From assembly GCF_056746865.1 (NCBI RefSeq), contig NZ_CM163382.1: 64,000 nt of DNA. The stretch is one strand, 5' to 3'. Numbering within the stretch: the first letter of the stretch is position 1; each line of letters begins with the position of its first letter. Of the stretch, positions 2,545-22,442 are shown one piece after another. A model generated the notes under the pieces. The model was not told the origin of the DNA, ran no database searches, and worked only from the letters and a program-made list of their open reading frames with translations. The position numbers and the translations under genes were made by a program.

Positions 2545-2644
2545 TTAACAACTTTGCAGATTAATTAACCAATTGAAATGACTTATGAAATTTAGTGTTG
2601 ACAGACAAGGTACCGCTAAGTAATATGCGCCCCGTTCACACGAT

Positions 2645-2720
2645 TCCTCTGTAGTTCAGTCGGTAGAACGGCGGACTGTTAATCCGTATGTCACTGGTTC
2701 GAGTCCAGTCAGAGGAGCCA
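2645..2720 (+). tRNA. asnT: tRNA-Asn (GUU)
   Basis: 76-nt TCCTCTGTAGTTCAGTCGGTAGAACGGCGGACTGTTAATCCG...GGAGCCA; identical copies at 18124..18199, 19948..20023 and 22367..22442. Confidence 0.95.
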
Positions 2721-2882
2721 GATTCAAGTTTTCATGCTTATCTGTACGTTTATATTTGTTTACGATTCAGTAAGTTAGCGTGAAAATCCTTGCCGGTGCG
2801 TATCTGGTTTTATCTCCGCATCGGGATAATTTGGTGGTCAGATCTGGGGTCAGTTTGGTTCGATTCTGGAGTGACCCCCAAA

Positions 2883-4151
2883 ATGTCTTTAAACGATTCT
2901 AAAATCCGCAAGTTAAAATCTTCTTCCCGTCCGGTAAAACTCTCCGACTCTCACGGTCTGTATCTGCTCGTCAATCCGGGCGGTTCGCGCATCTGGTATC
3001 TCAAATATCGTTTCAACGGAAAAGAATCCAGAGTCAGTCTTGGCGCATACCCGCTGGTCTCACTGGCAGAAGCCAGGCAACAGCGCGACGGTATCCGCAA
3101 GTTACTGGCGCAGAATATCAACCCGGCGCAGCAGCGCATGGCAGAGAAAGCCGCCTGCTCCCCTGAAAAGTGCTTTAAAGCGGTGGCGGTGGCGCTGGCC
3201 TGGCACAAAACCAACAAAAAATGGTCGGCTGATTATGCCGCCCGTATTCTCGCCAGTATGGAAAACCATATCTTCCCGGCGGTTGGTCATTTGCCCGTTG
3301 CCAAACTTAAAACGCAGGATTTCACTGCCCTGCTGAGGGTTATTGAGGATAAGGGCTTTCTGGAAGTCGCGTCCCGCACGCGGCAGCAACTCAGCAACAT
3401 CATGCGCTATGCCGTATAGCAGGGGCTTACCGAAAGCAATCCGGCGCAGCATCTGGATGGCGTTGTCTCCTCCCCCGTAAAGAATCACTACCCCGCGTTA
3501 CCGCTGGAGCGGTTGTCCGAACTGCTTGGCCGCATCGGTGACTATCAGCAGGGCCGGGAGTTAACCCGGCTGGCGGAGGTGCTGACACTGCACCTGTTCA
3601 TCCGTTCCAGCGAACTGCGTTTCGCCCGCTGGAGCGAGATCGATTTCAGGCACAAAATCTGGACCATCCCCGCCACCCGCGAGGCCATCGACAAAGTTCG
3701 GTTTTCGGGGCGTGGCGCAAAAATGCGTACTCCGCATATCGTACCGCTCTCCCGCCAGGCGATTGCCCTTCTGAAACAGATACAGGAGCTTTCCGGCCAT
3801 CTGGATCTGGTGTTTCCCGGCGATCATAATCCGTACAAGCCAATGAGCGAAAACACAACCAACCGGGCGCTGCGCCTGATGGGGTATGACACGAAAACTG
3901 AAATCTGCGGGCATGGACTCAGGGCAATGGCCTGTAGCGCCCTGGTGGAGTCGGACCTGTGGTCACGCGATACGGTGGAGCGGCAAATGAGCCACCAGGA
4001 GCGCAACAGCGTGCGGGCGGCATATGTGCATAAAGCAGAGCATCTGGAGGCCAGAAAGGCCATGATGCAGTGGTGGTCGGATTATCTGGATGTGTGCCGC
4101 GAGGGGTATGTTGCGCCGTACATTTATGCCCGGCAGCATAAGGCAGCCTGA
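2883..4151 (+). pseudogene. P4-type tyrosine integrase next to tRNA-Asn, interrupted by an in-frame amber codon (TAG 3417..3419)
   Basis: ORFs 2790..3419 and 3513..4151 share one frame; N-terminus MSLNDSKIRKLK is typical of P4-family integrases; C-terminal HGLR...SHQERNSVRAAY catalytic region is intact. Confidence 0.8.
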
Positions 4152-4315
4152 ATCAGAAATAGCGTAAATCATTAAAACCGGAAAAGCAGATCCTGATTGA
4201 CCGGGATCTGTTTTTTTGTATTGAGAGGTATTGTCGCTGTTTTTGTTATTATTAATTGGGAAGCACCGAAAATTATTCCAGTAGAATATTTGCAGTCGAT
4301 TGCCTATTAATAAAT

Positions 4316-4630
4316 GCATTATTGATAGATAATTACCTTCTGTGATTTGCCTGCAAATCACAGAAGATGAAAACCTATCAATACGGGATATTTTCACGAA
4401 AATACAAATTAATACTCCAGAATATCTGCACCAGAATATCTCCTGACCCTATACTCTGAAACCTGTAAGAACTGCATCAGATATTCAGAAACCAGACAGA
4501 TATAAGCCTGAAATTATTTGGCGTCCAATGATTTCAGGCGAAACCTATCAATGCATCTGTTTTCAACAGGCAGCCACCTTCCGTGATTCACATGTTAATC
4601 ATGGAAGGTGAAAAGCTATCAATAATCGAC
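4316..4630. repeat. iteron-like array: CTATCAAT core four times (three direct, one inverted) with two palindromes
   Basis: perfect 11-bp inverted repeat TTCTGTGATTT/AAATCACAGAA at 4338..4365; imperfect palindrome CCTTCCGTGATT...AATCATGGAAGG near 4568..4600; GAAAACCTATCAATA-like units at 4370, 4539 and 4608. Confidence 0.45.
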
Positions 4631-20023: not shown

Positions 20024-20060
20024 AATTCCTGAAAAGCCCGCTTTTATAGCGGGATTTTTG

Positions 20061-21011
20061 CTATATCTGATAATCAATTTCCTCTTCACTGCTTTCCATC
20101 ACCTGCCGCTTGATATCCTCAACTGACAGTCCTGCATTACAAAGTTCCAGAAAGCGCCAGACATAGTTACGCTGAAGTTGTCCTCGCTTCAGTCCCAACC
20201 AGACAGTATTAGCATCAAAAAGATGCCGCGTATCCAGGCGGATTAAATTCTCTTCCTCTTGTTCGCCACTGGATTGCTCGGCAACTAATCCGATCCCAAG
20301 CCCAAGAGCAACATAGGTTTTAATGACATCAGAATCCTGCGCACTTAATACAATATCTGCCAGCAAACCTTTGCGGGCAAATGCGTCATCAATACGTGAG
20401 CGCCCCGTAATCCCCTGTCGGTAAGTGATTAACGGCCACTTCGCTATTGATTCCAGCGTCAATGGTGAAATTTGCGTCAAGGGATGATCGTGTGGAACAA
20501 GCAAACTATGGTGCCAACGAAACCACGGGAAGGCGACGAGCTGCGGGTCATTACTCAAACGCTCGCTGGCGATACCAATATCAGCTTCGCCATTTTGCAA
20601 CAATGTCGCAATTTCCTGTGGCGTCCCCTGGATTAGCTCGAGCCGAACCTCCGGGAAAAGTTCGCGAAAAGCTTTAATGACCTCTGGCAAGCTATAACGT
20701 GCCTGAGTATGCGTCGTTGCAATAGTGAGAACGCCAGACGTATCGTTGGTAAACAGGTCTGCAAGCCGACGAACATTACTGGCTTCATTCAGAATACGTT
20801 CTGCAATGACCAGTAATGCTTTGCCCGGTTCAGTCATGCCCAGCAGTCGCTTACCTCGTCGAACAAATATTTCGATGCCAAGTTCATCCTCCAGTTCCCG
20901 AATATGACGGCTGACGCCTGACTGTGAGGTAAAAAGCATATTCGCAACCTCTGTCAGGTTGTAATCCTGACGTGCAGCCTCGCGGATTATCTTTAGTTGT
21001 TGGAAATTCAC
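20061..21011 (-). CDS. cbl: LysR-type regulator Cbl
   Basis: 316-aa ORF; N-terminal LysR HTH (MNFQQLKIIREAARQ...). Confidence 0.88.
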   Translation of the reverse strand: MNFQQLKIIREAARQDYNLTEVANMLFTSQSGVSRHIRELEDELGIEIFVRRGKRLLGMTEPGKALLVIAERILNEASNVRRLADLFTNDTSGVLTIATTHTQARYSLPEVIKAFRELFPEVRLELIQGTPQEIATLLQNGEADIGIASERLSNDPQLVAFPWFRWHHSLLVPHDHPLTQISPLTLESIAKWPLITYRQGITGRSRIDDAFARKGLLADIVLSAQDSDVIKTYVALGLGIGLVAEQSSGEQEEENLIRLDTRHLFDANTVWLGLKRGQLQRNYVWRFLELCNAGLSVEDIKRQVMESSEEEIDYQI

Positions 21012-21112
21012 GGTAAACTCCGGGCAGTTCAGATTTCCCGTTATTGTTAAAGTCTAATGCCCGGCATAACAAATAATAAAAACCCGCATCTTATTCCATC
21101 CCGATATAACAC

Positions 21113-22030
21113 TTAGCTCACCAATTGCCACTGCCTTTTTTCCATCACTGGAGAACTAATCACTGACATTAACAACTCTTTCACTGCCTGTGCCTGTGGC
21201 GATAAGTTCGCTCTGGCGGGTAAATTTAATGACAAAGAGAGACTCATGGAAGGAGTGGTAATGCGTGACATCCACCCATTTACTGCGCCACATAACGAAC
21301 GCGCGGCCGATTCGGGTAATACTGCAACGCCCATGCCGCTGGCAATCGCTGCGGTAAGCGTGGCAATAGACTCAATTTCACCAATAACTTTTGCCGTGAG
21401 TCGCCGTAGGGAAAAAGCCTCATCAACACGAAGTCTAATAGCACTGTAATCACTGGGGAGAAAGAGGTTCATTTGCGCAATAGCATTCACATCAACGCTT
21501 TGCCCCGGGCAATCTTGAGTTCCTACCAGAAAAAGATCTTCTTTCAGCAAAGCCTGACTGGATACACCAGCCACAGGGGAATGCTCATAAATCACCGCCA
21601 TATCGAGTTGGTGATTTATCAATTTTTCGTTAAGCACTGCACCACTATTTTCATGAAGATAGATAACGATCTCCGGAAATTCAGCGCGAACCGCCTGTAA
21701 TAAGGGCATGGTGATGGATGACGCAGCGGTTCCTGGTGCAAAGCCAATCGAGACTTGCCCCGATAATGCCTGACCAACGTTATGCACCGCCAGTTGGGCC
21801 TGTTCACACTGACGTAAAATGGCCCGCGCATGGGTATAGAGAATTTTTCCGGCGTCTGTTGGTGTAACGCCCCGCTTTGTACGGATCAAAAGTTGTTGAT
21901 TTAACTCACCTTCCAGTGTGGCAACCTGCTGGCTGAGCGCTGGTTGTGCGATATGCAATACTTCAGCAGCCTGGGTCAGGCTACCAATATCTACAATTTT
22001 TACGAAGTATTTCAGGCGTCTGAAGTTCAT
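21113..22030 (-). CDS. nac: nitrogen assimilation control protein (LysR family)
   Basis: ORF 21113..22060; start at MNFRRLKYFVKIVDIGSLTQAAE (ATG 22030); 305 aa. Confidence 0.88.
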   Translation of the reverse strand: MNFRRLKYFVKIVDIGSLTQAAEVLHIAQPALSQQVATLEGELNQQLLIRTKRGVTPTDAGKILYTHARAILRQCEQAQLAVHNVGQALSGQVSIGFAPGTAASSITMPLLQAVRAEFPEIVIYLHENSGAVLNEKLINHQLDMAVIYEHSPVAGVSSQALLKEDLFLVGTQDCPGQSVDVNAIAQMNLFLPSDYSAIRLRVDEAFSLRRLTAKVIGEIESIATLTAAIASGMGVAVLPESAARSLCGAVNGWMSRITTPSMSLSLSLNLPARANLSPQAQAVKELLMSVISSPVMEKRQWQLVS

Positions 22031-22366
22031 GTTGCCTCCGGTTTTTAAGAATCGGCCCAAGTGCCGCCATTACTTACAACCAGATTGCAAGATGCTTGCC
22101 AGTTTTATTTTGGTGTTGATGTACAAGCTAACCAACTGTCAAATAAGAGATTATGATAGATTCGTCATTGGCTCTTTTTATCTGCAGTCGCATTCACCTG
22201 CCCTATAAAAGGAGGGTATGCACCACGATGGTTCATTACCCAATAAGATTGAAAGCTCACCACTTTGTTGAAATTGGCAGCAAACAAACAAAAAAATGCA
22301 TTTCACCCTTTGACATCACCATGCACTGCCATTAATATGCGCCCCGTTCACACGATTCCTCTGTAG

Positions 22367-22442
22367 TTCAGTCGGTAGAACGGCGGACTGTTAATCCGTA
22401 TGTCACTGGTTCGAGTCCAGTCAGAGGAGCCAAATTCAAAAA
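22367..22442 (+). tRNA. asnV: tRNA-Asn (GUU)
   Basis: identical to asnT, including the 24 bp upstream (TAATATGCGCCCCGTTCACACGAT). Confidence 0.95.

Follow-up and report, generated by a model that had tools for sequence, protein, structure and literature searches.

The stretch of Escherichia coli chromosome analyzed here (64,000 nucleotides of contig NZ_CM163382.1, RefSeq assembly GCF_056746865.1; hereafter the window) carries four genes for tRNA-Asn(GUU), asnT, asnW, asnU and asnV, and a 4.1-kb islet that directly follows asnT. The gene order is zinT-yodB-serU-mtfA-asnT ... shiA-amn-yeeN-asnW-yeeO-asnU-cbl-nac-asnV-ldtA-cobTSU. Strain F11 is the closest match to the window (99.7% identity over 94% of the query), and K-12 is collinear with it over positions 1-2725 and 12523-26000; the window itself is not rearranged. 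The features discussed below are listed in Table 1.

Table 1. Features of the asn region in the window, with positions in nucleotides
Feature	Position	Strand	Basis or remark
tRNA-Ser, serU	1564-1653	-	ARAGORN
asnT sigma-70 promoter	2598-2626	+	Promoter scan, 10/12; TTGACA, 17-nt spacer, TAATAT
asnT, tRNA-Asn(GUU)	2645-2720	+	ARAGORN (GTT), Rfam
Islet, truncated left end of a P4-like asn-tRNA island	2721-6834	+	No attR; fused to yeeJ start
P4-type tyrosine integrase pseudogene	2883-4151	+	Amber codon at 3417-3419 (codon 179)
AT-rich non-coding stretch between the two recombinase genes, 1.3 kb	4152-5461		Long imperfect inverted repeats
Second recombinase, 294 amino acids, intact	5462-6346	-	Phage_int_SAM_2 and Integrase_1
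EFASI RNA motif, 55 nt upstream of the Integrase_1 gene	6401-6530	-	Rfam RF02957
yeeJ remnant, inverse-autotransporter adhesin pseudogene	6835-10775	+	~3.1-kb internal deletion relative to K-12
asnW, tRNA-Asn(GUU), 3' flank empty	18124-18199	-	ARAGORN
yeeO-asnU-cbl-nac segment between the inverted asnW and asnV	18200-22356		K-12 orientation in the window
asnW promoter	18246-18218	-	Promoter scan, 10/12; -10 hexamer TAATAT
asnU promoter	19904-19931	+	Promoter scan, 10/12; -10 hexamer TAAGAT
asnU, tRNA-Asn(GUU), 3' flank empty	19948-20023	+	ARAGORN
asnU terminator	20037-20053	+	Sequence
asnV promoter	22310-22338	+	Promoter scan, 10/12; -10 hexamer TAATAT
asnV, tRNA-Asn(GUU), 3' flank empty	22357-22432	+	ARAGORN
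asnV terminator	22439-22466	+	Sequence

Identity and promoters of the four tRNA-Asn genes

An earlier interpretation made from the letters alone (the sequence-only reading) had described the four genes as identical, with an islet at asnT only. Both statements were confirmed. In a four-way alignment, 76/76 positions are invariant, and the score against Rfam RF00005 is the same for each gene (72.6 bits). Each folds into a cloverleaf with a GTT anticodon and ends in GAGCCA, so that the CCA end is encoded in all four, and a 22-nt probe from the tRNA 3' end matches the four tRNA-Asn sites only, where shuffled sequences give an expectation of 0. The 3' flanks of asnW, asnU and asnV are those of K-12, save for one base in the loop of the asnV terminator. 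Taken with the genome comparisons described below, these data make it very probable that the cluster consists of four paralogous, separately transcribed tRNA-Asn(GUU) genes with strong sigma-70 promoters of their own, whose 3' ends serve as attachment (att) sites for islands and whose copies exchange reciprocally. The four-gene cluster is already described in the literature as an island docking site and a set of repeats for rearrangement (PMC8209727, PMC2606025, PMC6458436); a paper on tRNA copy number cites the four asn genes merely as an example of clustering (PMC4539685).

The promoter scan identified a perfect TTGACA -35 hexamer before all four genes, and the distance from the end of the -10 hexamer to the mature tRNA 5' end is 16-18 nt throughout (18 nt at asnT). 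The spacers between the -35 and -10 hexamers are unrelated in sequence. A conserved -35 hexamer combined with unrelated spacers is what selection on promoter elements would be expected to leave in old paralogues. GC-rich discriminators are typical of stable-RNA promoters, and the asnT flank at 2621-2644 is made up of the -10 hexamer TAATAT, the GC-rich discriminator GCGCCCC and a leader of ~11 nt. These 24 bp are identical to the 24 bp before asnV (22333-22356), both reading TAATATGCGCCCCGTTCACACGAT, as had been noted from the letters; asnW differs from this stretch at 3/24 positions, and the divergence of asnU is greater. The identity between asnT and asnV is best accounted for by the predicted function of the stretch as the -10 element, discriminator and leader of a sigma-70 promoter, a layout common to the four genes.

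In K-12 the asnT flank reads TAATATTCGCCCC..., with T rather than G at the seventh base, and so matches asnV at 23/24 positions. Perfect 24/24 identity is therefore particular to the present strain, and it could have arisen by point mutation or by gene conversion over a short tract. A fuller version of the second option, in which recent conversion from asnV to asnT ran from the tRNA into the leader and accounts for the identity in place of promoter selection alone, seems to us rather doubtful. It would agree with the asnV state of the one base at which the strain departs from K-12, with the identity of the tRNA bodies across strains and with the documented reciprocal exchange between copies. 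The lone G/T difference, however, is equally well explained by point mutation, a longer conversion tract is not visible, and the retention of the -35 hexamer beside unrelated 17-nt spacers is the signature of selection.

One part of the sequence-only reading required correction: the equivalence of asnT and asnV as targets does not stem from their shared 5' flank, and integration uses the 3' 16-21 nt, which are the same in all four genes. That the 24 bp represent an integration footprint, or an extended att site marking two special targets, is highly improbable, and this candidate was rejected. The identity does end abruptly 24 bp upstream of the tRNA, and asnT and asnV are the two junctions disrupted most often among the genomes compared. 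Nevertheless, the direct repeats of complete islands span only the 3' 16 nt of the tRNA and 4-5 nt downstream, islands occur at asnW and asnU as well despite their differing 5' flanks, K-12 matches at only 23/24 positions, and the stretch coincides exactly with the -10 element, discriminator and leader of a promoter laid out alike in four genes.

The islet at asnT and its full-length relatives

The islet begins at the first base after asnT, and its integrase reading frame starts at 2883 on the + strand, in the orientation of the tRNA gene. In comparison with K-12, a 4.1-kb insert (2726-6834) stands in for ~300 bp of the asnT-yeeJ spacer. Of the 5,426 complete E. coli genomes compared, 386 carry the islet at ≥80% coverage and 90-100% identity; K-12 lacks it. 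Pfam places Arm-DNA-bind_3 and Phage_int_M before the stop codon of the integrase and Phage_integrase after it, and the F11 annotation lists the gene as a pseudogene. In the AT-rich stretch that follows, the inverted repeats pair 4309-4350 with 4353-4394 and 4318-4369 with 4575-4626; this stretch is 87-88% conserved in the relatives described below. The second recombinase is recognized by Phage_int_SAM_2 (E = 1.5e-39) and Integrase_1 (E = 6.7e-60). The EFASI motif upstream of it is matched over its full length at 95.7 bits, against a gathering score of 51.2; the Rfam description of EFASI is quoted in PMC12370729. No STAXI motif, a frequent companion of EFASI, was found in the window or in either full-length relative. 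Two small open reading frames (ORFs) at 6383-6715 (+) and 6541-6843 (-) have no Pfam match, and the stretch they occupy holds the EFASI RNA.

The attB/attL core of asnT is formed by the last 16 nt of the gene (2705-2720), and the direct repeats in the relatives start at this sequence, CCAGTCAGAGGAGCCA. A search of 2601-12000 for a degenerate right attachment site (attR), allowing ≤4 mismatches to the 16-nt core, returned no match besides the tRNA. Because no attR repeat is present, the islet is not delimited by repeats, and its right edge was set from K-12 and the full-length relatives. The first base after the asnT CCA (2721) is G in the window (GATTCAAG...) and A in related islands (AATTCAAG...), which indicates a point change within the former attL repeat of the window. 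Of the hallmarks of tRNA-associated islands with a P4-type integrase, the class of the yersiniabactin island HPI, pks and ICEEc1, the islet shows a position 3' of a tRNA gene, an integrase as its first gene in the same orientation, and strain-variable presence; an intact tyrosine integrase and an attR at the distal border are missing.

Two larger islands match the islet at 87-94% identity over their tRNA-proximal ~4 kb. In 2014C-3075, a Shiga toxin-producing E. coli (STEC), a 10.7-kb island with an intact integrase lies at asnT; it is bounded by a perfect 21-bp direct repeat, CCAGTCAGAGGAGCCAAATTC, and contains EFASI, Integrase_1, a helix-turn-helix (HTH) gene, a C4 antisense RNA, and an Rhs core protein gene with small downstream ORFs. 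In STLEFF_29, an 18-kb island at asnW is bounded by a perfect 20-bp direct repeat and combines the integrase/EFASI/Integrase_1 module with isrK, C4, an ash-family gene, HigA, Rhs fragments and a radical S-adenosylmethionine (SAM) gene. EFASI is kept upstream of Integrase_1 in both (STLEFF_29 locus 16464-16592; 2014C-3075 locus 5070-5198). The integrase of STLEFF_29 also has a stop codon, at a different codon from that of the window, so integrase decay has been independent in at least two lineages. The Integrase_1 gene, by contrast, is intact in all three versions while the adjoining P4-type integrase decays repeatedly, and its ratio of nonsynonymous to synonymous substitution rates (dN/dS) is 0.12-0.16 relative to the two relatives. 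A common right end, ...GGCGATC directly followed by CCAGTCAGAGGAGCCA, is found in the colibactin island pks, in the conjugative form of the yersiniabactin high-pathogenicity island (HPI) and in the islet family, which points to one superfamily of asn-specific elements.

HPI being the usual occupant of asnT, the islet might be regarded as a degraded HPI remnant: it sits at the same locus, and a P4-type integrase comes first and in the same orientation. This origin is scarcely credible, and it was rejected. The nucleotide identity of the islet integrase to those of HPI and pks is only 73%, whereas the islet reaches 87-94% with another family, one with Integrase_1, EFASI, C4 RNA and Rhs genes. 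Between asnT and yeeJ, none of ybt, irp or fyuA is present, and the integrase is the only likeness to HPI. Comparison with the relatives shows instead that all the window retains is the leftmost 4.07 kb of a P4-like island with Rhs cargo, from which the right part and attR were deleted and in which the integrase later broke. This island family, with its P4-type integrase, EFASI, Integrase_1 and Rhs cargo at asnT and asnW, may, together with the position of pks relative to the asnV 3' flank discussed below, be the only part of the present account that is undescribed.

Island occupancy and exchange between the four copies

To quantify occupancy, junction queries of 3.1 kb were compared with the 5,426 complete genomes, and a junction was scored as intact when one place in the genome covered ≥80% of the query; rearrangements were counted with chimeric junction queries. 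The rule by which the similarity search joins matches can merge neighboring tRNA matches. The genome collection is rich in clinical clones and laboratory derivatives, and the counts do not correspond to independent events.

The K-12-type empty asnT junction (mtfA-asnT-yeeJ) was intact in 2,570 genomes and absent from 2,856. The corresponding numbers were 4,970 and 456 for yeeN-asnW-yeeO, 5,179 and 247 for yeeO-asnU-cbl, and 4,667 and 759 for nac-asnV-ldtA. Variation was thus present at each of the four loci, where its complete lack would have spoken against the sequence-only reading. A junction of asnT with the HPI integrase was matched in 2,039 genomes, a count best read as the top of a range, since coverage of the 3.1-kb query alone does not separate HPI from islet integrases and up to 319 of the matches (80-90% identity) look like the islet type. 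Islands were found at all four loci, in keeping with the earlier proposal that the copies are repeated integration targets and that other strains would carry islands at asnW, asnU or asnV. Besides the STLEFF_29 island at asnW, LZSFT34 has, between asnU and an attR adjoining cbl, a conjugative HPI of 58 kb that contains a type IV secretion system, mobilization genes and a type I restriction-modification system. At asnV, M217 carries an integrase-led island that also has a type III restriction system and transfer genes; TD225-C4 has an integrase followed by a deletion into cobU associated with the insertion sequence (IS) IS1; and C21 has a block of sugar phosphotransferase system (PTS) genes after the tRNA, with no integrase adjoining it. 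Earlier work found that, in nearly all strains of the E. coli reference collection (ECOR) that carry HPI, the island is fixed at asnT and has lost its right repeat by deletion; it placed the conjugative HPI of ECOR31 at asnV (PMC2606025).

Very probably, the identical 3' ends (CCAGTCAGAGGAGCCA followed by AATT/C) serve as the attachment site for a family of P4-type tyrosine integrases, so any copy is able to receive an island. Asn-specific integrases of this type mobilize the yersiniabactin HPI, pks, ICEEc1-type elements and the P4-like Rhs island of the islet, and their transcription would presumably be driven by read-through from the tRNA promoter. In the window, asnT was occupied by a P4-like island that then lost its right 6-14 kb, including attR, and whose integrase gained a stop; these two losses have fixed the remnant in place. 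The tRNA copies, acting as repeats of ~76-100 bp, in addition exchange reciprocally: asnW, the sole minus-strand copy, gives an inversion with a plus-strand copy, and two plus-strand copies give a deletion.

Rearrangements of these kinds are present in the genomes, as had been anticipated for the region. The asnW × asnV inversion (junction yeeN-asn-nac) was detected in 265 genomes, among them Nissle 1917, CFT073, 536 and NU14; the asnW × asnU inversion, which flips yeeO (yeeN-asn-yeeO start), in 34; the asnT × asnW inversion of the yeeJ-shiA-amn-yeeN block (mtfA-asn-yeeN) in one (ET5); and the asnU × asnV deletion of cbl and nac (yeeO-asn-ldtA) in 35. Reciprocal hybrid flanks, with the 5' side of one copy joined to the 3' side of another, were seen in each example inspected (asnW × asnV in muskdeer13-4, asnW × asnU, the asnU × asnV deletion in STLEFF_29 and asnT × asnW in ET5), which places the crossover inside the tRNA repeat. 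The genes lost in the asnU × asnV deletion, which is seen in STLEFF_29 and in the set of 35, encode LysR-type regulators of sulfur and nitrogen assimilation, and a phenotype is possible. In FHI_NMBU_03 and O157:H7 WS4202, the inspected asn junction queries match a single tRNA-Asn site and the asnW-asnU-asnV region is missing, so larger losses also occur. In WS4202, a copy of IS1203 adjoins a truncated yeeJ at the break, and the loss may be IS-associated rather than tRNA-mediated.

Published work bears on both the inversion and the placement of pks. This island has been reported from asnW, asnU or asnV, together with inversion of a 4,309-bp region in B2 strains that carry pks (PMC8209727). In 270 of the genomes compared here, pks has its right end next to ldtA, at the 3' flank native to asnV. 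After its attR come the native terminator of asnV and ldtA, and the tRNA gene before pks has the promoter flank of asnW (e.g., in muskdeer13-4). The presence of the native asnV terminator after attR places pks physically at the asnV 3' flank, so that the label asnW describes the inverted 5' side only. One insertion and one inversion could explain both published configurations. A broader proposal, drawn from the sequence comparisons and in our view unlikely, is that Integrase_1 and its EFASI leader would constitute a module maintained by selection in hundreds of E. coli genomes, and perhaps the second and still-active recombinase of an undescribed asn-specific P4-like Rhs island family that uses asnT as well as asnW. 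As a side point, with pks at the native 3' flank of asnV in essentially every pks-positive genome, its asnW and asnV configurations may be one and the same insertion, found in either orientation of a 4.2-kb inversion that is reversible.

The exchange is probably mostly RecA-dependent homologous recombination. Catalysis by island integrases, acting on attL or attR and on attB in other asn genes, is a possible but less probable source of the inversions and deletions. The asnW × asnV inversion is nearly confined to pks genomes (265 versus 270), the inverted orientation was seen only in pks-positive B2 strains in PMC8209727, and we infer that recombination between a pks attR beside yeeN and attB in asnV would yield exactly the observed arrangement. 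Against integrase action, GSH8M-2, in which neither asnW nor asnU has an island or integrase, carries the inversion between them, the integrase of the window is a pseudogene, and the asnW/asnV inversion arose within cultures of UTI89, where it was ascribed to the identical sequences and called possibly common and dynamic (PMC6458436).

Several points weigh against the interpretation of the cluster as separately transcribed genes that receive islands and exchange reciprocally. The transcription starts are predictions of the promoter scan, and read-through into the integrase is likewise presumed from the arrangement of the genes. The window is unrearranged, and the role in recombination is seen only in other genomes. 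The counts include clonal and laboratory records, with many Nissle and CFT073 entries in the sets of 265 and 270. Finally, the nearly constant association of the asnW × asnV inversion with pks is explained by one ancestral event, or by an integrase-mediated event, just as well as by recurrent exchange through RecA.

Neighboring features, significance and known systems

Beyond the islet, the first ~98 bp of yeeJ are joined directly to sequence that in the K-12 gene lies ~3.1 kb farther on, and the frame is broken. Between yeeJ and shiA, a gene for a family 9 glycosyltransferase is interrupted by an IS3-family element (IS2-like, 1.33 kb, 11192-12523). This element shares 95.7% identity with an annotated IS2-family copy and 99.7% with a copy on a plasmid of enterotoxigenic E. 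coli (ETEC), and it is absent from F11. On the other side, serU has no adjoining island in the window. Elsewhere it is followed by an integrase or prophage (O157:H7 WS4202 and 2014C-3075) or, in another genome, by a DUF6387/H-NS island; these islands identify serU as a second hotspot ~1 kb from asnT.

The asn cluster is the entry site in E. coli for two medically important islands, the yersiniabactin HPI and the colibactin island pks, and exchange between its copies reshapes the neighborhood, including loss of the regulators cbl and nac. To this the window adds a descriptive case, in which the asn loci are free of HPI and pks and asnT is occupied by the fixed remnant, 4.1 kb long, of an island that is less well known. 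The junction counts provide a current estimate of the occupancy and rearrangement frequency of each site, and they also show that pks insertions labelled as asnW likewise adjoin the native 3' flank of asnV.

The closest known system is the asn hotspot of HPI and pks itself, with which the window shares the locus, the four identical tRNA-Asn genes and P4-type integrases acting on the tRNA 3' end. Fixation after loss of the right repeat is likewise shared with HPI at asnT (PMC2606025). The window differs in having neither HPI nor pks, in carrying the remnant of another family at asnT, and in its non-inverted asnW-asnV segment. Identical asn copies are also interchangeable as attB for the Yersinia pseudotuberculosis HPI, ICEKp of Klebsiella and ICEEc1 of E. 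coli (PMC8209727, PMC2606025 and general knowledge), and the HPI with type IV secretion genes at asnU in LZSFT34 has an ICEEc1-like layout. Those three elements are complete and mobile, whereas the islet has no attR, cargo or working integrase.

The CP4-type P4-like elements have the same P4-type integrase domains, and the relatives of the islet carry the C4 antisense RNA, isrK and an ash-family gene. The cargo of these relatives differs, consisting of Rhs toxin-type genes, with no P4 replication or capsid-redirecting genes seen in them, and the window keeps the integrase-proximal module only. Finally, rearrangements between repeated ribosomal RNA operons (rrn) and tRNA genes follow the same rule of reciprocal crossover, with inversion between inverted copies and deletion between direct copies. 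Unlike the rrn repeats, as generally known, those of the asn cluster are only ~76-100 bp long and lie within 20 kb, and the rearrangements between them are local (1.7-15 kb).

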